From: a virus
Reading direction: 5' to 3' (one strand)
DNA: 10,875 nucleotides
UHGV virus genome: UHGV-0301773
Position 1 is the first letter of the stretch. Each line of letters starts with the position of its first letter. Below, one piece after another: positions 168 to 10,875 of the stretch. The position numbers and the translations under genes are program-made. The notes below the pieces were generated by a model, which was given only the letters and a program-made list of their open reading frames with translations, was not told the DNA's origin and ran no database searches.

Positions 168-1265
168 TCAAGAGGTCTTATTTCTGCTCCTTTGGAGCTC
201 TTCAAAACGATTATGTAAAGATTTCGGATACAGTTCGGTATATACCTGCCATAGCACGTTTAATGAACGATGCCCTGTGACCTGGGCGACTTCCTCAATA
301 CTAAAACCAGCCTCAAATAAGCGACTTGCCCCTTCTCTACGCAAATCATGGTATCGCAGATCCTTAATACCTAATTTGCTTCTTACCCTCTGAAATCCCG
401 CAGTAACAGAAGTGCTGTTATATGGAAAAATGAATTCCGATTTTTTGGGCTGTCGTTGGACGATATCCCAGGCTTCCCCAAGCAAGGCTACTTTCATGTG
501 GTTGCCTTCCTTTTTGCGTGGATCTTTCCTGTCTCTTACGAGTATAGATTTTTGTTCCTGGTCGAGATCTTCCCATCGTAACCGGCATACTTCTCCGATC
601 CGCATACAGGACCACACAGAAAATTTGAGGATATCAACGAACGGAATTTTTGAGCATTTATGAGTAGATCGTTGTTGAAGGCCTTCAATGAGCATGTCCA
701 GTTCATCAGATGCTGGTCTACGATTACGACGGTTTGATTTACCAATCAAACCAAGTTTAAGTAGATATGGGCGAGCGCTTTTCGCCGGGTTTGATGTGTA
801 ATTAATTCCGTATACAGGTTTGGCCGCATCCAGAACACTGCCAAGATAACTAACATCGTGGCTGACTGTTGCTGGACCTGCACCAGCGTTGTTTCTTAGC
901 CTGCAATGTTCAATTACGTCATTTTCTGTCAGTTCAGATAGTTTGATCGCGGAGATGTCACTATCCATAAGCAGTTCCAGCACATATCTTTTAGTACGGC
1001 CTGCTTTACCTCCGGCATTTGGGTCATTTAAATATTTGTGTAGTAAGTCACGGACTGTAAGTCCGTCAACTGCATTTGATGATGGAATGCCATATAGATC
1101 TAATTCCATCACTTTCTGTGTTCCCCATGTTTTGGCATGAGCATGTTTAGGGAATGTTTTGCTTTCCCTGTAAGTGATAACACCTTTTTCTTTGATAATC
1201 ACATTACAGCGATAGCGTGGTGTGCCATCGGATTTTAGTCGTTTCTCTATGTTATAGTACGCCAT
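168..1265 (-). CDS. int: Phage integrase, tyrosine recombinase family
   Basis: 365-aa ORF; C-terminal catalytic region contains HDLRREGASRLF (H-x-x-R) and a downstream conserved tyrosine (LWQVY), with an N-terminal arm-binding-type domain; typical phage integrase length. Confidence 0.9.
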   Translation of the reverse strand: MAYYNIEKRLKSDGTPRYRCNVIIKEKGVITYRESKTFPKHAHAKTWGTQKVMELDLYGIPSSNAVDGLTVRDLLHKYLNDPNAGGKAGRTKRYVLELLMDSDISAIKLSELTENDVIEHCRLRNNAGAGPATVSHDVSYLGSVLDAAKPVYGINYTSNPAKSARPYLLKLGLIGKSNRRNRRPASDELDMLIEGLQQRSTHKCSKIPFVDILKFSVWSCMRIGEVCRLRWEDLDQEQKSILVRDRKDPRKKEGNHMKVALLGEAWDIVQRQPKKSEFIFPYNSTSVTAGFQRVRSKLGIKDLRYHDLRREGASRLFEAGFSIEEVAQVTGHRSLNVLWQVYTELYPKSLHNRFEELQRSRNKTS

Positions 1266-1284
1266 TACACGACCTCGTTATTTC

Positions 1285-1520
1285 GGGTTCCCATAAAACG
1301 TGGGAACCTGTGCGGGAACCTAACGCGAGAAAAATAGCCTGAAATGTTCAAAAATGCACGATAATCATGAAACACAAAAAATTAATCAAACCAGCGTGAT
1401 GCCTGAAAAAACTGGTGTTTGCTGGAATTCTCGGTTTAGCATTGCTCCTATGCTCGATAGGATGTATCGTTTTTGAAAAACAATTGGTTATGTGTTTTGT
1501 GGGAGCCTATTGGGAACCTA
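1285..1520. repeat. Cluster of short GGGAACC(T) repeats upstream of int; candidate protein-binding (arm-type) sites
   Basis: GGGTTCCC at 1285-1292 (inverted), GGGAACCT at 1302-1309, GGGAACCTAA at 1314-1323, GGGAGCCTA at 1501-1509, GGGAACCTA at 1512-1520. Confidence 0.4.
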
Positions 1521-1577
1521 TCAAAAGATTTTTTGTCATAACAGTGTGAGATGCAAAACACTGTGATGGTCGCTTTG

Positions 1578-1605
1578 TTGACATCGCAACTTCTGCAGGT
1601 ATAAT
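1578..1605 (+). promoter_or_regulatory. Consensus sigma70 promoter (TTGACA-16 bp-TATAAT) for the plus-strand two-gene module
   Basis: TTGACA at 1578-1583 and TATAAT at 1600-1605, both perfect hexamers, 16-bp spacer; predicted start near 1612, about 150 nt upstream of the first gene. Confidence 0.6.
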
Positions 1606-1621
1606 TCGCCACCAATTTGTA

Positions 1622-1641
1622 ACCTGTGTATATGTACAGTC
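1622..1641. promoter_or_regulatory. LexA (SOS) box, acCTGT-N8-ACAGtc, just downstream of the module promoter
   Basis: CTGT at 1624-1627, spacer gtatatgt, ACAG at 1636-1639; positioned about +11 to +30 relative to the predicted start, suitable for repression. Confidence 0.55.
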
Positions 1642-1762
1642 ATTTGCTGGTTATAAACACAGTGAATTGCTCTTGCAATCTTCCAAAACTTTTTTGTTCG
1701 TGTTAGGTTGAGATAACAGTGATGATACTGTTTGCACATTCAGTGTAATGAGGAGGGTGGTT

Positions 1763-2236
1763 ATGTACAGTCCGGTACAAATAGCCAATAAATTCATAAC
1801 GTTGGGAAACCAACATCATAATCCTCTGACCCACATGCAACTTCAGAAGCTTACTTATATTGCCCATGGTTACTATTTAGCATTAACAGGTAAGCCTTTG
1901 CTCAATGAATGTGTCTCCGCGTGGAAGTACGGTCCAGTTATTCCTGGAATGTACGATGCTTTCAAAGACTATGGGAATAAACCTGTTACGAATGTAGCAG
2001 TAGCTCCTTTTGGTGGCATCGTTACTATGGATCCGCAAGCAGAGAGCATTATAGGGGCTGTTTATAAGTTTTACGGCTCGAAAAATGGAATTGAGTTATC
2101 AACTCTAACTCATATGCCAGGTACGCCTTGGTCACAAGCTTATAATGGTATTGGCTCGTCGATCATCTCAAATGATGCGATCAAGGCTTATTATCATGAT
2201 TTATTGAATAACCGACAGCAATGTCAGGGCCTCTGA
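1763..2236 (+). CDS. Panacea-domain (DUF4065, PanA/SocA/GepA-like) protein; putative antitoxin or immunity component
   Basis: Strong RBS AGGAGG at 1751-1756, 6 nt before ATG 1763 (the in-frame ATG at 1748 has no RBS). Motifs THMQLQKLTYIAHGYYLALTGKPLL and WKYGPVIPGMYDAFKDYG resemble the Panacea/COG3600 signature as I recall it. Confidence 0.7.
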   Translation: MYSPVQIANKFITLGNQHHNPLTHMQLQKLTYIAHGYYLALTGKPLLNECVSAWKYGPVIPGMYDAFKDYGNKPVTNVAVAPFGGIVTMDPQAESIIGAVYKFYGSKNGIELSTLTHMPGTPWSQAYNGIGSSIISNDAIKAYYHDLLNNRQQCQGL

Positions 2237-2258
2237 AAAAGTAATATTCAGGGATGAC

Positions 2259-2807
2259 ATGTCTCATAATTCAGATATCTATAAACTGATCGGAGCGGCC
2301 GCAGGTGTTGAAAATGGTCGCTCTGAAGCATCCTTAAACTCTACTGACAGTCAAGAGCAGGCTTTTGAATCCGCATTTGAGCCGTCTAATCATGAGCGCG
2401 ATGATGATTCTTCTTCAGAAAATAAGGCTATTCTGGAGGCAGAAGAGTTTGGTTCTAATACTGGTGCATTGCATGAGTTTATGCAGCAGAACAGAATGGA
2501 CAGTCTTCAAGCTCAGCTTGATATGCTCAAGTCACAAGTACGGGATAAGATAGCTGACGCAACTGGTAAAGAAATAGACAATGAGCTTCGGACAAAAATG
2601 GCCTCATTCACGGTTTGGTTTATGTCGTGTTGGTGCTTATTTGTAGCCGGAATGTTTGTATCATTTCTTATTGCTCATGAAGGAAAGCCGCCAGTTGAAG
2701 CAATCGTTGCATTACTGGGAACAAGTACAATTAGTATTGTTGGTTTGGTTGGCTTCGTTGTTAGTGGATTGTTCAAATCTAGAAAAGATGGCGATAAAGA
2801 AAAATAA
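2259..2807 (+). CDS. Two-TM membrane protein with acidic, coiled-coil-like N-terminal domain; candidate toxin/effector partner of the PanA-like protein
   Basis: 182-aa ORF starting 22 bp after the upstream stop, RBS AGGGA; acidic serine-rich N-terminus, helical central segment (LQAQLDMLKSQVRDKIAD), two hydrophobic helices near the C-terminus (FTVWFMSCWCLFVAGMFVSFLIA; AIVALLGTSTISIVGLVGFVVSGLF), basic tail. No family recognised. Confidence 0.7.
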   Translation: MSHNSDIYKLIGAAAGVENGRSEASLNSTDSQEQAFESAFEPSNHERDDDSSSENKAILEAEEFGSNTGALHEFMQQNRMDSLQAQLDMLKSQVRDKIADATGKEIDNELRTKMASFTVWFMSCWCLFVAGMFVSFLIAHEGKPPVEAIVALLGTSTISIVGLVGFVVSGLFKSRKDGDKEK

Positions 2808-2825
2808 CCCGTATATACACGGGTT
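2791..2825 (-). terminator. Rho-independent terminator between the convergent module and the leftward early operon
   Basis: Perfect 7-bp stem AACCCGT (2806-2812) / ACGGGTT (2819-2825) with 6-nt loop; on the minus-strand transcript the hairpin is followed by AUUUUUCUUU. Weaker U-tract in the plus direction. Confidence 0.6.
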
Positions 2826-2840
2826 ATTCATGGTCTTAGT

Positions 2841-3113
2841 TTAGTTATATTTTTGTTTATCCGTTCTGACCTTTTCCCACTCAGCTCGTCCTTCTTCTCG
2901 TCTTTTGTCTATGTATTCCGCAAGATCCTGAATATTGATGCAACGTTTTGCTTTTTGTGATGTGCCGATGCGATATGTTGGAACGGGCAACTTACAAGCG
3001 TTTGCTTTTGCTTCTGCCGTGGCTGGACTCATGCCAAAGTACTTTTGGCTAACTGCTGAGAGTTCAATGTTAGGGGTATTGAATTCAGCCATCAGTAAAA
3101 ACAAGGTGTTCAT
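2841..3113 (-). CDS. Excisionase-like small DNA-binding protein (Xis/PrtN-type), tentative
   Basis: Last gene of the leftward operon, next to the int region; probable start ATG at 3113 with RBS GGAG 6 nt upstream (track ORF extends to a GTG at 3140). About 90 aa and basic; family assignment from memory only. Confidence 0.55.
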   Translation of the reverse strand: MNTLFLLMAEFNTPNIELSAVSQKYFGMSPATAEAKANACKLPVPTYRIGTSQKAKRCINIQDLAEYIDKRREEGRAEWEKVRTDKQKYN

Positions 3114-3149
3114 AATTTTCTCCATCAAAACCGGCTGCACCCGGGAAAA

Positions 3150-3722
3150 TCATAATTCTGTGCTGGTGGCAGGAATTAATTTCTGCCAGATAGCGGAAAC
3201 ATATTTTGCCTGATGACGGGCATCAGCCAGGGCGTTGTGCCGTTCGCCATCGAAAGGCATGTCCATTTTGGGGTCGAATCCGATGGAACGCCCAAGCGTA
3301 ACGATCGTGCGTACATCGTGGTCATTCCAGTACGCCCACGGGCAGATTTGTCCTGCTCGCTCGTAAGCTCCACGTAAAATTACGTTGTCGAAGGTGGCCC
3401 CGTTACCCCAGACTTTTAAATATTTTGTATTGTCTGCATGCTGATTAATGAAATGGCTCAGTTCAGAGAGTGCATCGCTGATCGACAAAGTATCATCAAT
3501 ACATATTGCAGCTCGTGCTTCAGAGCTCTGTTTCAACCACCACAGGATGGTATCGCCGTCAGGTGTAGCTCCTTGCTTCATAGCACTGTCCAAGCTGACA
3601 ACCGTATAGAATTCTTGTCCGATGTCTCCTGTTTCTAGGGTGAAGAACACCGCGCCAATGGAAACGATCGGCGCGTCCTTATTTTTCCCCATCGTCTCAA
3701 GGTCGATCATTAAGTTGTTCAT
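3150..3722 (-). CDS. DEDDh-type (DnaQ-like) 3'-5' exonuclease
   Basis: ATG at 3722 overlaps the upstream stop (TGATG) with RBS GGAGG; motifs MIDLET (D-x-E), GNGATFD and HNALADA (H-x4-D) are typical of DEDDh exonucleases. Confidence 0.8.
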   Translation of the reverse strand: MNNLMIDLETMGKNKDAPIVSIGAVFFTLETGDIGQEFYTVVSLDSAMKQGATPDGDTILWWLKQSSEARAAICIDDTLSISDALSELSHFINQHADNTKYLKVWGNGATFDNVILRGAYERAGQICPWAYWNDHDVRTIVTLGRSIGFDPKMDMPFDGERHNALADARHQAKYVSAIWQKLIPATSTEL

Positions 3723-4432
3723 CACTTCACCTCCTGCGGCGGTTCCGGTAGCGGCATCCAGTGAGTTGCTTGCTCAATACCATTACCCGGCTTAATCGTT
3801 GCATCTCCGCGCCGAAAGGTGCTTCCGGTATAGCGTGCGGAGCATATTAGCGGTTCAACCAGAGAGCTATCGAAATTCACCGAAATAAGCACGTTCTGGC
3901 CCTTTTCAGGCATTCGATCACTACAGCTTATCCAACTATCCGGAGTTACCGGAGAGTTGCCATTTACATCGAAGTTTGGCTCTGCGTCCTGAACCAGGAG
4001 GATGTAACCATTCTTGGCAGTATCAAGTTCTAACGCCTCGGTGACGGTGCCGAAATAGCGATTACCTAAATCAGCATCACAAGTGCTTACATCAATGGAA
4101 ACTTCCATGCCTTCGATTAATTCTGGCAAGTTGTAAGTTTGGTTTACAGGTTGGCCTCCCTGAAGCATGGCGGCGCGGTGACACCAGATAATCCAGCCAA
4201 GCGCCATATCCCATGCCATGTATTCTCTATCACCATTTTTCGCCCTGCGGCGATCTACAGATTCCCCGAAACGCTTCTCCATAAATAATTCATAGGCTGC
4301 TCGTTCATCCGATACTGCTGCCAGTGATGCCAGTGCAATTCGTGCCAGTTCCATTTGTTCGCCACGGGTAAGCCCGTTTTCAAGCGGATTTTTAATGAAT
4401 AATTCGATACGTTCTTTGGTAATAGAATTCAT
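3722..4432 (-). CDS. DUF551-domain phage protein with long N-terminal extension
   Basis: 236-aa ORF, RBS AAGGTG; C-terminal region WISCSDRMPEKGQNVLI...ATHWMPLPEPP resembles the DUF551 signature. Confidence 0.75.
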   Translation of the reverse strand: MNSITKERIELFIKNPLENGLTRGEQMELARIALASLAAVSDERAAYELFMEKRFGESVDRRRAKNGDREYMAWDMALGWIIWCHRAAMLQGGQPVNQTYNLPELIEGMEVSIDVSTCDADLGNRYFGTVTEALELDTAKNGYILLVQDAEPNFDVNGNSPVTPDSWISCSDRMPEKGQNVLISVNFDSSLVEPLICSARYTGSTFRRGDATIKPGNGIEQATHWMPLPEPPQEVK

Positions 4433-4433
4433 G

Positions 4434-4625
4434 CTATTTCACCTTAATCTCAACATTTCGCAGTTTTAGCTCTACTGGCAGGTCTGACTTTCCTGTTAAT
4501 GCTAATGCGAGATTTTCTGGAGTAATGAGAGCAGTTATTGTTTTCCCCCTCGCCAGACGAATAATCATGCGTATCTCGCGATCGTCACATGCTCCCGGTC
4601 GAACAATTGATATTTGTCCGTTCAT
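4434..4625 (-). CDS. Small hypothetical phage protein (63 aa)
   Basis: Tightly packed in the operon (stop 2 nt before the next start; own RBS GGAG); no recognisable motif. Confidence 0.55.
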   Translation of the reverse strand: MNGQISIVRPGACDDREIRMIIRLARGKTITALITPENLALALTGKSDLPVELKLRNVEIKVK

Positions 4626-4626
4626 C

Positions 4627-5223
4627 TCACTCTCCTTTGATGCCAGTGTTTACAACCTGGCAAGCCTCTTTGAGCACCCAGTCAACAGCGTCTTTCCATG
4701 CTCCGGTTTCGACTGGCGGATTTTCACGCTTAACCTGTTCATAGAAGCGCACTGCTTTAACCAGTCCTTCCGGTACTACTGGCGATGGCTGTTTAGCTTC
4801 TAAATCAGCAATTCTGTCAACCACGGCATCGACAGCATCTGAAAAGCCGAACCAGTTGCTCCACTCCGGCCTGTTACCGGTTGCTGCAAAGTACATATCA
4901 TCTAAAGCAGACTCAGCATGGTCACGCTCGTTAATGAGTTGCTCTTCGCTTTTCTCCAGTTCTGCAATACGCTTGTTTTGGGATTCCCGTTCATCCAGCA
5001 GCGCCTGCACTACTTCAGGGTTGAAAGCTGCGATATAACGAGCGTTGTTCTCTGCATTTTTCTGTCCATCAAAGCCGGTCCATTTGATAACGTCTTCACA
5101 TCGTTTATCACCGGGCGTATGCACCGCATACGTACCAGTACCCGGCGAAATAAATGCGACCCATTCGCTTTGTGTTGCCTGTTTTGCTATCTCACGCAGT
5201 GCCTGATAGTCAATCTCGCTCAC
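4627..5223 (-). CDS. Ead/Ea22-like early-region protein
   Basis: GTG start at 5223 preceded by perfect RBS AGGAGG at 6-nt spacing and overlapping the upstream stop (GTGA); N-terminus MSEIDYQALREIAKQATQSEW recalls the Ead/Ea22 family. Confidence 0.7.
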   Translation of the reverse strand: MSEIDYQALREIAKQATQSEWVAFISPGTGTYAVHTPGDKRCEDVIKWTGFDGQKNAENNARYIAAFNPEVVQALLDERESQNKRIAELEKSEEQLINERDHAESALDDMYFAATGNRPEWSNWFGFSDAVDAVVDRIADLEAKQPSPVVPEGLVKAVRFYEQVKRENPPVETGAWKDAVDWVLKEACQVVNTGIKGE

Positions 5224-5459
5224 TGGTTGCCTCCTTTACGGATCTGCGCAGCGATGCACGAAAAAAAAGACTCTCGCGTATGACTGTTAAGAGCTGGCGC
5301 GAACGCCGCGTTAAGAACGGCAGCATCACAGCCGTCATCGATATAGAGCGCAATTTTTTTCTCCAGGCGTGCTTTGGCTTCCTGCAACTGCATACCCCGG
5401 CACGCACGCGGGATATACTCAGCAATTTGAGCGATAGATTTTTCGTTCTGTTTAAACAT
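5220..5459 (-). CDS. Small hypothetical phage protein (79 aa)
   Basis: ATG at 5459 overlaps the upstream gene by 8 nt (ATGTTTAA); its stop overlaps the downstream GTG start; no recognised family. Confidence 0.6.
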   Translation of the reverse strand: MFKQNEKSIAQIAEYIPRACRGMQLQEAKARLEKKIALYIDDGCDAAVLNAAFAPALNSHTRESFFSCIAAQIRKGGNQ

Positions 5460-5655
5460 GCTTCACCTCGATAGGCTTGATGGTATCGATCAGCAGTCGG
5501 CGGCGAGTATTTTCTGCAAAGTGGCGGCGTCCGTTTTCTTTGTGGTAAAACTCGTTTTTTCCGACGACCCACATCCGCTTTGTCTGGTGCAGTTTTTTTA
5601 CCTGCGGACCGTCTCGGGTGATAACAATTCCTGTGTGAGTTTTTATCACGCTCAT
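5452..5655 (-). CDS. Small basic hypothetical phage protein (67 aa)
   Basis: ATG at 5655 overlaps the upstream stop (ATGA); lysine/arginine-rich; no recognised family. Confidence 0.6.
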   Translation of the reverse strand: MSVIKTHTGIVITRDGPQVKKLHQTKRMWVVGKNEFYHKENGRRHFAENTRRRLLIDTIKPIEVKHV

Positions 5656-6014
5656 TTCTTATTCTCCGGTGCTTTCGGCATTACTGCCCAGTGAGTGATA
5701 TTGACGTTTTCAAGGTCCCCGACCTGAAATGTCCACTGCCATTCTCCGGTTTCTTTTTGTCCCCAGGTGTACCAGAGAGAACGCCAGCCAATTAGCCAGC
5801 CTTCTCCGTTAGCATCAAATAACAGAACACTTTCATTTGCTGGTGGCAGTTCAGCTGACACTGGTATTATTTTGTTTTCCAGTGCCGCACATTTAGCTTC
5901 AAGCGCATCGAATTTACGTACCAGGTACTCAGCATTTGTTTCGTTCACTTTCAGATCTCGCGGTACACATTTCCCGCGAAGAAACCCTTCCATTTCGAAA
6001 ACATTCATGCTCAT
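5652..6014 (-). CDS. DUF551-domain phage protein (short paralog)
   Basis: ATGA-coupled start at 6014; C-terminus WQWTFQVGDLENVNITHWAVMPKAPE matches the DUF551 C-terminal signature also seen in 3722-4432. Confidence 0.7.
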   Translation of the reverse strand: MSMNVFEMEGFLRGKCVPRDLKVNETNAEYLVRKFDALEAKCAALENKIIPVSAELPPANESVLLFDANGEGWLIGWRSLWYTWGQKETGEWQWTFQVGDLENVNITHWAVMPKAPENKK

Positions 6015-6541
6015 TTGCGTAACTCCGATAACTCGTTAAAACGTTCCATAAACATCCCGTAGGCATGGCCCGGTGCCAGTGGAATCACGTTGAACATCTC
6101 TGTTGCCGGGATGCCTTCCAGTACAGGCCAGAAAGAGCCATCATCAAGCCCGAGATCGCGGCGTTCGGTTGCCAGCATGATGAGATCGGCATATTTCACA
6201 GGCGTGCTCATAACCGGGGGTAACCCGTATTTCTCACGGATTACGGCATCTATTTTTTCTTCCATCCGTTTATAGTCAGGAAGAAGGCGTTTCAGTGGAG
6301 CGGGGATGTCCTGGCAATATGCTTCTGTTGCATCATGCATTAACGCTTCAAAAGCAAATTCCTGCGGTACCAGCTGGCTGCAAAGCACCGCATGCTGGGC
6401 GACGCTGTAGAAGTGTGAAAGATGTCCTGCAAAGCGACAGATATTTGAAAGGGAAACTGCGATATCGTTAATCACGATGTCGTCTTTATTTATCTTGTCA
6501 TAATAAAAATGCTTCCCGGAAAAAGTTTTAATAAATGACAT
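6011..6541 (-). CDS. yfdR: HD-domain phosphohydrolase, YfdR-like 5'-deoxynucleotidase
   Basis: Probable start ATG at 6541 with RBS GGAG 6 nt upstream (track ORF begins at a GTG at 6553); HD motif (AQHAVL ... LMHDATEAY); N-terminus MSFIKTFSGKHFYY matches my recollection of E. coli CPS-53 YfdR. Confidence 0.8.
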   Translation of the reverse strand: MSFIKTFSGKHFYYDKINKDDIVINDIAVSLSNICRFAGHLSHFYSVAQHAVLCSQLVPQEFAFEALMHDATEAYCQDIPAPLKRLLPDYKRMEEKIDAVIREKYGLPPVMSTPVKYADLIMLATERRDLGLDDGSFWPVLEGIPATEMFNVIPLAPGHAYGMFMERFNELSELRK

Positions 6542-6635
6542 TTCGTTCTCCACTTTATATGCGCTGCACCGCGCTGAATTCTGCTAAAAGGAAGCTCTCA
6601 CCATCCGGTGATTATTGAGTTAATTACGTTTCCAT

Positions 6636-6657
6636 AAATGCCCCCGCAGGGGCATTT
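6636..6657 (-). terminator. Intra-operon hairpin (possible attenuator or weak terminator) between the yfdQ-like and yfdR-like genes
   Basis: Stem AAATGCCCC / GGGGCATTT with 4-nt loop (CGCA) in a 128-bp intergenic gap; only a short U-run follows in either direction. Confidence 0.3.
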
Positions 6658-6669
6658 GCAGTAATGAAA

Positions 6670-7494
6670 TCAGGCGGTGAAAGTACCAATAAAGGTTTCT
6701 ACTTTGCTGTCTTTGAATTTCTCAACAAGCAGATCACGAAATTCGTTAGCCATTTCTTCCTGCATCGCTTCCAGCTGAATAATGCGCAGAACCAGTACAG
6801 GACGATCGCCAGTGATAATGCTGAGGCGTAATTTAAACGGACGTTCTTTCAGACCTTCAAACGGAACGCATTTAAATTCAAATGCCACTGGCATAATGTC
6901 TTTGGTCTTCGCTTCGACAGACTCCATCAGAGAGCGTTTGCCGCTGAAGTCATTGTCTTCAAAATCAGCGGTCTGGTTTGCTTCAATTGTGATTTTACGG
7001 ACTGCCGCAGCCGCTTTGGTTGCCTGAATGGTGTCACCATTAGCATCAAAGCCCACAAGGTAGTCGGCCCAGTCTTCAATCCATTCTGCCAGTGACTTCT
7101 GGGAGTTACGCTCGCCATTAACAGACAACAGAGCAGAAAACGGTGCTGTCTTTTTCAGTTTGAGGGTGGCGGTGTTATCTGCGTGACCTGGTTCATCAAT
7201 AGTACCCAGGTTAAGCACACTGACGGCTCGCATATTATCGGCATCGATAAAGCAGCGGGTGCCTTCATCTGCAAGATCTTTAGAATAACGGGTAAAGTCA
7301 TCGATGCTGACAGTGGAAAGCGCACCACGGAAACGGAAGCGATTTAAATTAAATTTTTCCAGATCATGAATGCGGAAATTCTCAGGCAATGCCACAGCAT
7401 CGGCACCAATCTTACTGATAATTTCATTAACACCCTGAGCAGAAATAAGGGCATGGATTTGATTAATTGCGGTTGCGTCTAAGTTCTGAGACAT
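6670..7494 (-). CDS. yfdQ: YfdQ-like (DUF2303 family) prophage protein
   Basis: 274-aa ORF, ATG at 7494 with RBS GAGGA 7 nt upstream; N-terminus [25 protein letters not shown] matches my recollection of CPS-53 YfdQ. Confidence 0.75.
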
Positions 7495-7559
7495 AATAAG
7501 TCCTCACTATATAAAGATATTCAGTGATGAGATAAATAATCAGTTAATTAAGAACGATA

Positions 7560-7922
7560 TTAATGACCTGCTGCGCGGAGTTTTCCGTCAGGTTCACCGG
7601 CAAGAGTCAGTAATTGTCCCTGGTCTTCCTGCAGAATAGTCAGGCGACCACCGCGATTGACATACATCGGCGTTTCGGTGGTGTCTTCTTCGGAAATTTT
7701 CCCGCGGTTAGTCGGGCGAACATATGAGAGTTTGTGTTTGATTTTCACACGGTTCTCATCAAACGGTTCGATTTCCAGGTTGAGCGAGACCTTACCTTTG
7801 GTTTTCGTGTTCATCACACCGGAAGCGACTTCACTGAGAACAGCGCCGATTTTGGTTTCAAATACGCCGCCGTCCAGCTCCCCGATAAATGCCTGCACAT
7901 CAGTACTGCGTTCGCTAGCCAT
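7560..7922 (-). CDS. Hypothetical protein (120 aa), first gene downstream of the PL-like promoter
   Basis: Internal ATG at 7922 preceded by RBS GAGGAG at 7-nt spacing; the longer track ORF (to 8108) has no RBS and poor composition. Acidic, no arginine-rich motif, so not N-like. Confidence 0.65.
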   Translation of the reverse strand: MASERSTDVQAFIGELDGGVFETKIGAVLSEVASGVMNTKTKGKVSLNLEIEPFDENRVKIKHKLSYVRPTNRGKISEEDTTETPMYVNRGGRLTILQEDQGQLLTLAGEPDGKLRAAGH

Positions 7923-7970
7923 TTTGCTGCTCCTCATCATATCGACCCTGCAAGGTCGGTTGGTTTCTCC

Positions 7971-8105
7971 ACAAAACAGAGAAGAACACCTGCGGTGGCA
8001 GCCGCCCGGATGGATTGGGTTATGAGCCCGTCGTCCGGCGATGCTCTTCTCTGTTTTGTAAAAAGAGCGGTACCAGCCGGAAGCAAGTGTACAAACTGGT
8101 ACCGC
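7971..8105 (-). ncRNA. Structured untranslated leader of the PL transcript: two adjacent stem-loops (candidate cis-acting antitermination or processing element)
   Basis: 15-bp perfect inverted repeat ACAAAACAGAGAAGA (7971-7985) / TCTTCTCTGTTTTGT (8045-8059) around a 59-nt GC-rich loop; 7 nt later a 10-bp perfect inverted repeat GCGGTACCAG (8067-8076) / CTGGTACCGC (8096-8105) with 19-nt loop. Confidence 0.35.
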
Positions 8106-8263
8106 CAAAGCAGTGGCTGTTGTGGTGACCGGTGCTGATCTCCGGCTTGCGGTTATTTCAGACTCTCACGGGCGTTTAATTGCCCCGCCGAACAGCTCTT
8201 TTCCGCAATAGCTGCAATGTCTTTCGCGCATCAGCCTGCGCATTCACCACAACTCTAAAAACA

Positions 8264-8317
8264 AATGTAGGATATCCAACATGTGAGTGTCAAGAGTTTG
8301 TGTTGGATATCCTACAT
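8264..8317 (-). promoter_or_regulatory. PL-like leftward promoter flanked by two operator sites
   Basis: Operator ATGTAGGATATCCAACAT at 8265-8282 and its reverse complement at 8300-8317 (palindromic GGATATCC core); minus-strand -35 TTGACA at 8293..8288, -10-like TACATT at 8269..8264 overlapping an operator. Confidence 0.55.
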
Positions 8318-8333
8318 AAAAAGATAGGCTCAT

Positions 8334-8360
8334 AAAAAAACCGGGGATACCCCGGTTTTG
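8334..8360 (-). terminator. Rho-independent terminator downstream of the repressor gene
   Basis: CCGGGG-ATA-CCCCGG hairpin (8341-8355) flanked by AAAAAAA (8334-8340) and TTTTG; on the minus strand the hairpin is followed by seven U, 20 bp after the cI-like stop. Confidence 0.7.
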
Positions 8361-8379
8361 CGATAGTGAGGAAGATGTG

Positions 8380-9033
8380 TCAAAAATCCATTATTACTTG
8401 TTTGACAAGACCAACTATTCTGCAGTTCTCACCGCATTCAATAGTTTTATAGTTAGGATTTAGTGGGACGAGATACCTGTTCGGCCAGTCCTCAACAAAT
8501 TTTTTGAGTGTCGCTTCTTGCCCACCATTGATATGGGCAACAACGATTTTTCCGTTAATACACTCTGTATCAATAATATCTGGCTCTACGATAACGATAG
8601 AACCTTCTGGTATCGATGGTGAGCCGAGGGGATTGGTCATTGAATCACCACGGACCCGTAGTGCAAATGCCATTTCTGATACAAGGGCGGTAGTATAAAC
8701 CCACTCTTCAGCATCTTCTTTCCTGACACCAGGCTCCGTCATTGTCCATGAACCCGCCTGAACCCACGAGATGAGGGGGACTTTTTTAACTGCGAATATT
8801 TCAGGTTTTAGATTTATCTTTGGTTCAGGCGAGCCTTTTCCGCTAACAAGCCACAGAGGATCGCATTTAAGTGCGTTGGCTAGGGCTTGAAGGTTGGCTC
8901 CATTTGGTTGGTAGTCGTCCTTTTCCCATCCAGTAACCGTGACACGGTTCACACCAGTCAAATCAGCCAGTGCTTGTTGTGTCAGGTTCAGTTCTTTTCG
9001 CCTTTGGCGAATACGATCACTCATGTTCATCAT
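8380..9033 (-). CDS. cI: cI-like prophage repressor: N-terminal XRE-type HTH plus C-terminal S24 (LexA-like) self-cleaving peptidase domain
   Basis: HTH region RIRQRRKELNLTQQALADLTGVNRVTVTGWEKD; C-terminal domain with RVRGDSM (Ser nucleophile) and EATLKKF (Lys general base); start at 9033 or 9024, overlapping an operator. Confidence 0.9.
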   Translation of the reverse strand: MMNMSDRIRQRRKELNLTQQALADLTGVNRVTVTGWEKDDYQPNGANLQALANALKCDPLWLVSGKGSPEPKINLKPEIFAVKKVPLISWVQAGSWTMTEPGVRKEDAEEWVYTTALVSEMAFALRVRGDSMTNPLGSPSIPEGSIVIVEPDIIDTECINGKIVVAHINGGQEATLKKFVEDWPNRYLVPLNPNYKTIECGENCRIVGLVKQVIMDF

Positions 9034-9097
9034 GTAGGCAATCCTACCACATGCCCATGTAGGATTCTTGACATTGGTATGTTGGATATCCTACATT
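9032..9097 (+). promoter_or_regulatory. PR/PRM-like divergent promoter region with three operator copies
   Basis: Sites ATGTAGGCAATCCTACCACAT (9032-9052), ATGTAGGATTCTTGACAT (9057-9074), ATGTTGGATATCCTACAT (9079-9096); plus-strand -35 TTGACA at 9068-9073 and -10-like TACATT at 9092-9097, about 30 nt upstream of cro-like ATG 9129. Confidence 0.6.
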
Positions 9098-9128
9098 TCT
9101 GCTTAACGTAATTTAACGGGAGACAGAA

Positions 9129-9326
9129 ATGCGGAAATCCGACGTGATTAATTATTTCGGCGGAGTTTGTAAAACCGCCGAAGCCCTAGGTATTAAGCAT
9201 CCGTCTGTTTCAGAGTGGCCTGAGATTATTCCTGAAGGCCGAGCGTACCAGTTAGAAAAAATTACTAACGGGAAACTGAAAGTTGACGTGTCTTTATATC
9301 AAAAGACTAACAGTGCTGCGGCATAA
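9129..9326 (+). CDS. cro: Cro-like small HTH regulator
   Basis: 65-aa ORF divergent from the repressor, RBS GGGAGA 5 nt upstream; HTH-like segment GGVCKTAEALGIKHPSVSEW. Confidence 0.75.
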   Translation: MRKSDVINYFGGVCKTAEALGIKHPSVSEWPEIIPEGRAYQLEKITNGKLKVDVSLYQKTNSAAA

Positions 9327-9353
9327 AAACACCACAGAAATGAGGAATTAACC

Positions 9354-9938
9354 GTGGGTAAAGAACCTGAATGGAAAGTTGATAAACAACCAGCATGGCT
9401 GGTGGCAGCAATACGAAGAACGATTGCTGATTTACCTCATGGCTATGAGGAAGCAGCAGAAATTCTTGGATTGTATAAATCTGATGATATCACCCCAGCA
9501 AAAGATCAATTGCATAACAGACTGCGTAGCGGTGGGGATCAAATTTTTCCACTTGAGTGGGTCATGGTTTTACAGGATGCCAGTGGTACCAGGCATGTAA
9601 CAGATGCAATAGCCCGTCGTAGTAATGGGGTGTTTGTGCCGCTGGTGGTCATTGATGACATTGACAATGGTGACATTAATCAGCGGCTGATGGAGTCAAT
9701 AGAATGGATTGGCAAGCATTCCCAGTACTTACGCAAGGCAACTGCTGATGGAGTTATTGACCAGGCTGAGCGTGAGCAAATCGAAGAGAACAGCTACCAG
9801 GTAATGGCGAAGTGGCAGGAGCATTTAACACTGTTATTTCGTGTTTTTTGTGCGCCGGAAAAGAGTAACGCCCGCGAGTGTGCAGCTCCGGGCGTCGTGG
9901 CGTCGATTGCTTCTGGTTGTGGAGAAACTAACGCATGA
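9354..9938 (+). CDS. cII-like lysogeny regulatory protein (CP76/YdaT-like family, tentative)
   Basis: GTG start at 9354 with RBS GAGGAA at 6-nt spacing; 194 aa; position right after cro; family assignment from memory and uncertain. Confidence 0.6.
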   Translation: MGKEPEWKVDKQPAWLVAAIRRTIADLPHGYEEAAEILGLYKSDDITPAKDQLHNRLRSGGDQIFPLEWVMVLQDASGTRHVTDAIARRSNGVFVPLVVIDDIDNGDINQRLMESIEWIGKHSQYLRKATADGVIDQAEREQIEENSYQVMAKWQEHLTLLFRVFCAPEKSNARECAAPGVVASIASGCGETNA

Positions 9939-10875
9939 ACAGTTTAACGGCAAATAACCGTTTGTCGCAACAGCTGGTGGTCAGCGTCGCTGAACACCTG
10001 TTGTTACGGCATGAATGCAGATTACCAAATCACCTGGCTGTAAGTAACCACAGAGAACTTTACCTGACTGTGGGGGGCGAGTTGTGCAGGAACTTAACCG
10101 CTGGTTTCGTGACGGAAGAGGACTTTATGTTCATGTTATTCGTTGGGAGCCAGAAACACAGCGCGTTATCTATCTTCGCAAAGACTACCCGCATGAGTGC
10201 TTTAGTCCTTTGTGGAAATTCAGGCGTGATTTTGTTGAGTGTGAAGGACCACCAGCACATTGATTCTGCCATTCCGGGACGTTACACTGTTCAGGCACCT
10301 TATAAAGCGGGTGCCGGGATTGGCGTCCTGAAATTGATTACTGAGCATAACCGCGCTCATGCGGTTTTTTCGTGTCATGAGCATTGCTACGCCCAAATTA
10401 TGGTGGGGCGTACAGGGCCGACTTCGGTCGGGCCGGGTTCGGTAGTCTCCGGTAACGCCAACCCTGTACGTCTCACCACCTCTGTGATTGGCGTCCCATG
10501 TGGTGAGTTTTCTAAAAAACTGACTACCGGGGCTGTCACCATGACTACTCTCCCAACCCTCTCTCAACCTGAAATTGCCATCGTTGATGGTCAGGCTGTT
10601 ACATCTTCTTTGGCTGTTGCTGACTTCTTCTCTAAACGTCATGACGATGTTCTGAAAAAGATCCGCATTTTGGATTGTTCTCCAGAGTTTTGTGCCCGCA
10701 ATTTTGCGGAGACATCAATTTTGGTACGCCAGCCCAACGGCGGTACTCGCAAACTTCCTTGCTATCAAATAACCCGCGACGGCTTTGCGTTTCTTGCTAT
10801 GGGTTTCACGGGTAAACGTGCTGCCCAGTTCAAAGAGGCATACATCAATGCCTTTAACCAGATGGAGAAACAGCT
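9935..10875 (+). CDS. Long open reading frame, 3' partial, carrying a Rha-family phage regulatory domain from about 10541; 5' boundary unresolved
   Basis: ATG at 9935 overlaps the upstream stop (ATGA); frame stays open to the window end (more than 310 codons). From ATG 10541 the translation MTTLPTLSQPEIAIVDGQAVTSSLAVADFFSKRHDDVLKKIRILDCSPEF...ITRDGFAFLAMGFTGKRAAQFKEAYINAFNQME matches the Rha signature as I recall it. Missing from the ORF track because it has no stop in the window. Confidence 0.5.
   Translation, partial: MNSLTANNRLSQQLVVSVAEHLLLRHECRLPNHLAVSNHRELYLTVGGELCRNLTAGFVTEEDFMFMLFVGSQKHSALSIFAKTTRMSALVLCGNSGVILLSVKDHQHIDSAIPGRYTVQAPYKAGAGIGVLKLITEHNRAHAVFSCHEHCYAQIMVGRTGPTSVGPGSVVSGNANPVRLTTSVIGVPCGEFSKKLTTGAVTMTTLPTLSQPEIAIVDGQAVTSSLAVADFFSKRHDDVLKKIRILDCSPEFCARNFAETSILVRQPNGGTRKLPCYQITRDGFAFLAMGFTGKRAAQFKEAYINAFNQMEKQ

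Follow-up and report, generated by a model that had tools for sequence, protein, structure and literature searches.

The membrane toxin gene panT and its Panacea-domain partner in a dusA-integrating lambdoid phage of Escherichia coli

The UHGV virus genome UHGV-0301773 was studied as a single stretch of 10,875 nucleotides (nt), called the window below. It contains an open reading frame (ORF), at 2259..2807 on the plus strand, that begins with ATG and specifies a product of 182 amino acids (aa). We consider this ORF, with a probability of about 0.93, to be panT, encoding the toxin in a PanA-PanT type II toxin-antitoxin (TA) module of two genes, carried as cargo by a lambdoid E. coli phage that integrates into dusA. 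The initial annotation of the window, made from the letters alone, had given the ORF and the length of its product correctly, and had raised the possibility that the protein belongs to a new class of effector. It does not: the protein is WP_000019185.1, a PanT of toxin cluster T3 that was validated in 2022. PanT is thus an already known toxin that has been rediscovered, because both it and its neighbor PanA are identical to the accession pair validated by Kurata et al. (2022; PMC8832971).

The discovery value is accordingly small: the toxin, the antitoxin and the membrane action were all published in 2022 for the exact sequence. New here are the presence of a Panacea gene upstream in every one of the 27 homologous loci that could be assessed, the location of the pair in the int-xis slot of a dusA-integrating phage, and a perfect sigma-70 consensus upstream of panA. 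The analysis also brings to light an annotation gap: a characterized toxin is left without a name in RefSeq, Pfam, NCBIfam and PADLOC alike, and scans will go on flagging it. The genomic context of panAT is corrected as well: the pair travels as cargo in a lambdoid phage that integrates into dusA, and the Shiga toxin (Stx) phage 1720a-02 has an identical pair. Finally, the analysis frames a question: whether panAT serves as a defense of the lysogen against other phages or as a stabilizer of the prophage.

Identity with a characterized membrane toxin

The identity was established by direct comparison. The PanT of the window differs in no residue from the coding sequence (CDS) WP_000019185.1 in NZ_CP129263.1, and the PanA of the window differs in none from the CDS WP_000287252.1 in the same record. 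At the DNA level, window positions 1600-2900 are 99.9% identical to the chromosome of E. coli STEC1588, where the RefSeq CDSs are again WP_000287252.1 and WP_000019185.1. One RefSeq WP accession denotes one exact sequence. The same accession pair is found in Table 1 of Kurata et al. (2022; PNAS 119:e2102212119; PMC8832971) as 'PanA Esc. col.-PanT Esc. col.' of E. coli STEC O31, with the entry 'Membrane', and PanT(Esc. col.) is among the nine PanA-neutralized toxins validated in that study. Dataset S1 of the paper assigns the pair to toxin cluster T3, with gene order A|T, a spacer of 22 and status 'TA'. The window matches the STEC O31 pair in both sequences, in gene order and in the 22-nt spacer. 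Every feature of PanAT/T3 membership that can be tested from sequence is present: identity, a Panacea neighbor, order and spacing, and conserved pairing.

The activity of the identical protein is on record. Expression of PanT(Esc. col.) halts the growth of E. coli, and co-expression of the cognate PanA rescues it (Fig. 2B of PMC8832971). In a 10 x 10 cross-neutralization matrix, the cognate PanA alone among the wild-type PanAs rescued from PanT(Esc. col.) (Fig. 6A of PMC8832971); an evolved variant of another antitoxin, PanA Vib. har. T36M Q131L, rescued partially. Metabolic labelling revealed a simultaneous block of transcription, translation and replication like that caused by HokB or carbonyl cyanide m-chlorophenylhydrazone (CCCP), and microscopy showed strong depolarization of the inner membrane (DiSC3(5)) along with SYTOX Green entry, which the authors read as the formation of large pores (PMC8832971). 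A membrane-depolarizing toxin with a C-terminal hairpin, under the control of an adjacent Panacea-domain gene, had been proposed in the initial annotation, and that is what these experiments show for the identical protein.

The ORF is a real gene. Its product matches PHROG 13343, a family of unknown function, over the full length (E = 5e-112). The exact PanT sequence is on record for 366 contigs and belongs to a 109-member cluster at 90% identity. The 1301-base stretch that includes panT (window 1600-2900) is present in 79 of 5426 complete E. coli genomes (1.5%), where it is chromosomal and in one copy each. That the ORF arose by chance, or that its product is a housekeeping membrane protein with no relation to the upstream gene, might be argued from its Pfam matches, which are weak, below threshold and to membrane domains (DUF6463, DUF2207_C and DUF2975). 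Against it stand the full-length PHROG match, the 316 database relatives, the consistent Panacea pairing, the accessory distribution among complete E. coli genomes, and the toxicity and neutralization published for the identical sequence. We give this explanation practically no chance, and rejected it on conservation and the published phenotype. A holin, or a holin-like protein that times lysis, had been offered as an alternative in the initial annotation. Holins lie in a lysis cassette with the endolysin and are timed by an antiholin isoform. Like PanT, phage holins such as lambda S are small membrane proteins with a charged C-terminal tail, and they make large non-specific holes in the inner membrane; a small protein of phage origin with two transmembrane helices, a tail of this kind and pore-forming activity could be taken for one of them. 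However, the position of panT, between int and xis, is at the opposite end of the early region and not in a lysis cassette beside an endolysin. A Panacea gene accompanies it at 27 of 27 loci, non-phage alphaproteobacterial contigs among them, and its product carries an N-terminal extension of about 115 residues, predicted to be cytoplasmic, that typical holins lack. No holin family was matched at E <= 0.1 in Pfam and PHROGs or at E <= 1 in NCBIfam. A holin is therefore very improbable, and the position of the gene and its partner led us to reject it.

No model in Pfam, NCBIfam or PADLOC reaches its threshold with PanT. The Pfam scores stay below the cut-offs (17.6 bits vs. 26 for DUF6463, 16.5 vs. 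33 for DUF2207_C and 13.7 vs. 27 for DUF2975). DUF2975 is matched at E <= 0.01 by just 6 of 21 members of the PanT family, with a best E of 0.0014; some of the homologs are named 'DUF2975 domain-containing' by RefSeq. PADLOC-DB v2, which includes the Rosmer toxin RmrT, gave only chance-level matches to PanT (CARF, E = 0.014) and no consistent match in the 21 family members. The initial annotation had stated that it could not place the protein in a named family, and rightly so, because none of Pfam, NCBIfam and PADLOC has a family that claims it; RefSeq still names it 'hypothetical protein'. Profile searches, as suggested at that time, have yielded relatives and no named family at threshold. 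In a 2025 phage record, PhiR47_1 (from ECOR13), both genes are already labelled PanA/PanT; PanAT is absent from the text of a preprint that mentions phage PhiR47.1.

Several characterized systems resemble the pair in part. RmrT (D5), the toxin of RosmerTA from Gordonia phage Kita, is phage-borne like PanT, has a C-terminal membrane region, and causes rapid depolarization and permeabilization with a stop of all three macromolecular syntheses (PMC10440598). It differs in having RmrA, not a Panacea protein, as its partner, and in that anti-phage activity has been shown for RmrTA. Hok peptides are about 50 aa long, have a single transmembrane helix and are controlled by antisense RNA. HokB, like PanT, depolarizes the inner membrane, and its phenotype was the standard against which PanT(Esc. 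col.) was compared in metabolic labelling (PMC8832971). Unlike the Hok/Gef toxins, PanT has 182 aa, two helices, a large domain predicted to be cytoplasmic and a protein antitoxin. Its size, helix count and protein antitoxin gene place it outside Hok/Gef, although no search was aimed at an antisense RNA. PanA, in turn, shares the Panacea domain (PF13274) with SocA of the Caulobacter SocA-SocB pair, a type VI TA system and the source of the founding Panacea protein. SocB is no membrane protein; it is soluble and inhibits the replication clamp. By this description PanT, with its two hydrophobic helices, is set apart from SocB. SocA acts by promoting the proteolytic degradation of SocB (PMC8832971). 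With the NCBIfam equivalog model SocA_antitoxin, PanA scores 96.8 bits vs. a cut-off of 190.

Protein anatomy, homologs and a proposed mode of neutralization

Residues 1-115 of PanT include 10 D, 13 E and 14 S (32% D/E/S) and have a net charge of -12, the acidity being concentrated in residues 1-70 (net -11). In Kyte-Doolittle plots with 19-residue windows, two blocks exceed 1.6, with peaks of 2.17 (centered at residue 130) and 2.22 (centered at 158). The first hydrophobic helix is SFTVWFMSCWCLFVAGMFVSFLIA (116-139) and the second AIVALLGTSTISIVGLVGFVVSGL (148-171); the loop between them, HEGKPPVE (140-147), has a net charge of about -1. The two helices agree with the published membrane mode of action. 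The acidic N-terminal region of about 115 residues and the two helices separated by HEGKPPVE had both been recognized in the initial annotation. The tail, FKSRKDGDKEK, had been called basic; its net charge is indeed +2, but it is of mixed charge (5 K/R, 3 D/E), and mildly rather than plainly basic.

An AlphaFold2 model of PanT, built on an alignment of 21 homologous sequences, is of low to moderate confidence (mean predicted local distance difference test score, pLDDT, of 59). In ten-residue blocks over residues 111-170, which include the hairpin, the pLDDT is 68-85. As modelled, residues 16-57 are disordered, a long helix (68-139) merges with the first hydrophobic helix, and after a loop comes a second helix (146-177). 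A heptad-like helical segment had been noted earlier in this part of the protein. The model contains the helix, but the heptad periodicity is at chance level: over residues 68-115 the best a/d register is 50% hydrophobic, a value reached by 4087 of 5000 shuffled sequences (82%). The sole hint of a coiled coil is a weak match to the lamin coiled coil (E = 0.039) in a sequence search of solved structures; the same kind of search with PanA returned no match.

A scan of one genome per species found no relatives with the single PanT protein and 8 loci with an alignment. When the alphaproteobacterial relatives were added, a profile search found 316 PanT relatives; none of the 120 matches listed of the 316 was a Bartonella protein. 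At each locus where the PanT-like ORF is complete and the contig extends far enough upstream, an ORF of about 150-320 aa on the same strand ends shortly before it. All 26 of these upstream neighbors submitted to Pfam match Panacea, three of them at alphaproteobacterial loci (Niveispirillum, Caulobacter, and a metagenome-assembled genome, or MAG, labelled only 'bacterium'). In Methylocystis (L011) the upstream ORF overlaps the start of panT and shows Panacea motifs by eye, so that 27 of 27 assessable loci are paired; one further locus (L010), cut by the end of its contig, was left out of the count. Two downstream neighbors that were tested are unrelated RsfS genes. The pairing of PanT with Panacea is thus consistent wherever it can be assessed. 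Whether homologs always pair with a Panacea gene had been put forward as a check in the initial annotation, and at every assessable locus they do.

The alphaproteobacterial relatives (L008, L009, L011 and L012, from Niveispirillum, Methylocystis, Caulobacter and the MAG labelled 'bacterium') have 129-149 aa. They keep the C-terminal GLVGFVVSGLF and the upstream Panacea gene, which in Caulobacter encodes 319 aa, and are without the long acidic N-terminal region. At two Caulobacter loci rsfS is directly downstream, which suggests a chromosomal rather than a phage setting.

Across homologs, the first 75 or so residues of PanT vary widely in both sequence and length. The pre-membrane motif G103-xx-I-D-N-x-L-R and nearly all of helix 2, ALLGTSTISIVGLVGFVVSGLFK, are invariant or nearly so. 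To judge from the alignment, this pattern fits a conserved hairpin that forms pores or oligomerizes, joined to a fast-evolving region of antitoxin recognition.

Allelic variation is also seen within E. coli. The commoner PanT allele is WP_059274466.1 (strain MB06101), and a similar one is found in PhiR47_1 (loci compared, L001 and L004). It differs from the tested allele by A130V, G131A and V134T in the first hydrophobic helix and by G178S. The comparison of alleles gives 61, 130, 131, 134 and 178 as the variable positions (window 2439..2792). PanA is identical in all four records compared.

How might the pair work? The two genes would be co-transcribed from a strong promoter-like site. The C-terminal hairpin of PanT (116-139 and 148-171) would insert in the membrane with both termini in the cytoplasm; this orientation is expected because R111, K113 and the K/R-rich tail flank the hairpin, while the loop is slightly acidic. 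The N-terminal region would then be within reach of soluble PanA. The near-invariant helix 2, with its small-residue motifs (G162-xx-G165-xxx-S169-G170), could pack against itself to form the pore. PanA, on the other hand, may bind the variable acidic N-terminal region together with the conserved pre-membrane helix (G103-xx-IDN-x-LR) and so prevent the insertion or the assembly of PanT.

The last step has a precedent. In the NetFlax paper (PMC10440598), Panacea was modelled as contacting the unstructured N-terminus and a short pre-membrane helix of a Bartonella PanT, and mutants support the model. By analogy, contact of PanA with the N-terminus and the pre-membrane helix is the most likely mode of neutralization here as well. 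The Bartonella toxin (from Bartonella apis/choladocola; WP_077993242.1; T12 in PMC8832971 and D11 in PMC10440598) resembles the PanT of the window in causing depolarization and SYTOX Green entry. It was not clustered with T3 by the authors of PMC8832971, who called homology between the two only possible. Relatives of the PanT of the window do exist in alphaproteobacteria, namely in Caulobacter, Methylocystis and Niveispirillum.

Some points weigh against the account given so far. The published mechanism comes from the over-expression assays of one paper, with pBAD33 as the vector (PMC8832971). The pull-downs of PanA with PanT in that study covered five other pairs, and binding in this pair is inferred. 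The 'large pore' was deduced from dye entry rather than from a structure or a conductance measurement (PMC8832971). The topology and oligomerization of PanT are predictions, and the mean pLDDT of the AlphaFold2 model is just 59. The analogy on which neutralization is argued is based on a homology of T3 to Bartonella PanT (T12/D11) that is itself only possible, according to PMC8832971. Finally, the invariance of GLVGFVVSG in loci L005-L064 is partly circular, in that the peptide was one of the search patterns.

The panAT pair in the int-xis slot and its possible roles

The partner gene, panA, lies at 1763..2236 on the plus strand and encodes a 157-aa stand-alone Panacea-domain antitoxin. The assignment draws on Pfam (PF13274, SocA_Panacea; E = 6e-18, 66 bits, cut-off 25.7), on the identity to WP_000287252.1 and on the listing of that protein as the cognate antitoxin in PMC8832971. 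As read from the sequence, a Shine-Dalgarno stretch, GAGGAGGG, ends five bases before the ATG at 1763. This ATG is the likely start: it is preferred because an earlier one, at 1748, falls within the Shine-Dalgarno stretch itself. The spacer between panA and panT (2237..2258, plus strand) has 22 nt, the same length as in Dataset S1 of PMC8832971. It includes a purine-rich AGGGA, four bases 5' of the ATG of panT, which is a plausible ribosome-binding site for the toxin gene.

A candidate promoter for panAT was found by a consensus scan at 1578..1605 on the plus strand. It has TTGACA and TATAAT separated by 16 nt, i.e., 12 of 12 consensus positions, and panA begins about 155 nt further downstream. 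In a chromosomal prophage copy (L003) the sequence is 100% identical. The site lies on the phage side of the attachment (att) core and hence is retained next to panAT in the lysogen. Because the sigma-70 consensus is on the prophage side of the core, constitutive expression of panAT in lysogens is suggested. At the other end of the pair, a scan for terminator-like structures found a hairpin with a 12-bp stem (2802..2829). It overlaps the stop codon of panT and is located between the convergent panT and xis. It is followed by a T-run on the minus strand only and so scores as a terminator of xis; it may also stop panAT transcription.

The pair is flanked by the integrase gene int (168..1265, minus strand) and by xis (2841..3140, minus strand; PHROG 1300), which encodes a PrtN-type excisionase; panAT is thus between int and xis. 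At about 1351-1465 on the plus strand, the window has a substitute for the 5' end of dusA, a copy that has diverged from it (MPEKTGVCWNSRFSIAPMLD vs. native MPEKTDVHWSGRFSVAPMLD). In lysogens, a native dusA 5' pseudogene fragment is found directly upstream of panA. From the diverged copy in the window and the native fragment in lysogens, we read dusA as the integration site of the phage, and the window as the int-attP-panAT junction in its phage form, not as an end of an integrated prophage. In each of the chromosomal copies examined, panAT is at the very edge of the prophage and adjoins attL.

Window positions 1600-2900 are 100% identical to Escherichia (Stx) phage 1720a-02, and panAT is present in about 30 viral contigs of IMG/VR. 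Many prophage contigs of that database begin directly with panA, at position 1. Dataset S1 of PMC8832971 (row GCF_000281775.1) marks the PanAT locus 'NotPhage'. The genes of that locus and of the window are without difference, but the lambdoid-phage context seen here contradicts the label.

Related phages carry other genes in the same place. The phages mEp460 and Lys8385Vzw have the integrase, the excisionase and the downstream early genes in common with the window, the matched stretches being 96-97% identical. The int-xis slot, which corresponds to 1266..2840 of the window, is occupied in mEp460 (L065, 1266..2555) by other small ORFs, of 177 and 57 aa, and in Lys8385Vzw (L066, 1266..2968) by unrelated small ORFs of 190, 139 and 57 aa. 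Judged by gene content, panAT is exchangeable cargo, because related phages with the same flanking genes have other genes there.

What the pair does for the phage or its host is a separate matter. One view is that panAT is a prophage-encoded system of abortive infection: an invader would inactivate the sensor PanA, PanT would collapse the membrane potential, and the cell would die before the phage cycle is completed. This is a claim on biological role and is compatible with the gene being panT. It would agree with the cargo position of panAT, where mEp460 and Lys8385Vzw have different small genes, and with the perfect sigma-70 consensus, whose location on the prophage side of the att core would permit expression in the lysogen. 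Panacea has been proposed to be a sensor, and the depolarizing toxin of RosmerTA from Gordonia phage Kita protects E. coli from phages (PMC10440598). On the other side, the promoter is a consensus match only, PanT and PanA match no PADLOC model, and a literature search found no phage-challenge data for this pair. The literature found on a defense role, or on later work on panAT, extends to nothing past two Atkinson/Hauryliuk papers. We hold the defense role to be possible, at somewhat less than even odds. A more explicit version is that panAT is constitutively expressed in lysogens of dusA-integrating lambdoid phages, the Stx-converting ones included, and that PanA senses the invader and releases the pore-forming PanT. 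This we advance only tentatively, and on balance doubt. If true, it would provide the first identified trigger for Panacea, and would make the int-xis slot a site of defense-gene swapping.

The other view is that panAT is a cassette for addiction, or stabilization. With PanT stable and PanA labile, cells that lose the prophage would be killed, and the phage would thus be kept in dusA. Type II TA pairs on mobile elements classically play this part, as discussed in PMC8832971. The location of panAT at the edge of the prophage, beside attL in every chromosomal copy examined, agrees with it, as does the start of panA at position 1 of many IMG/VR prophage contigs. However, closely related phages manage without panAT, only 79 of the 5426 complete E. 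coli genomes carry it, and the relative stability of PanA and PanT is an assumption of this explanation. The literature search turned up no data on this role either. We consider stabilization rather unlikely.

The early region downstream of xis

The rest of the window (3150..10875) is an ordinary lambdoid early region. It encodes an Rv2179c-like 3'-5' exonuclease (3150..3725), a DUF551 protein (3722..4432), YfdR, a 5'-deoxynucleotidase of the HD family (6011..6553), and YfdQ/DUF2303 (6670..7494). Further on, the gene for an S24/LexA-like repressor (8380..9033) faces a divergent small helix-turn-helix gene (9129..9326). The gene content is mosaic with respect to every phage record matched, the best of which covers <=70% of the window.

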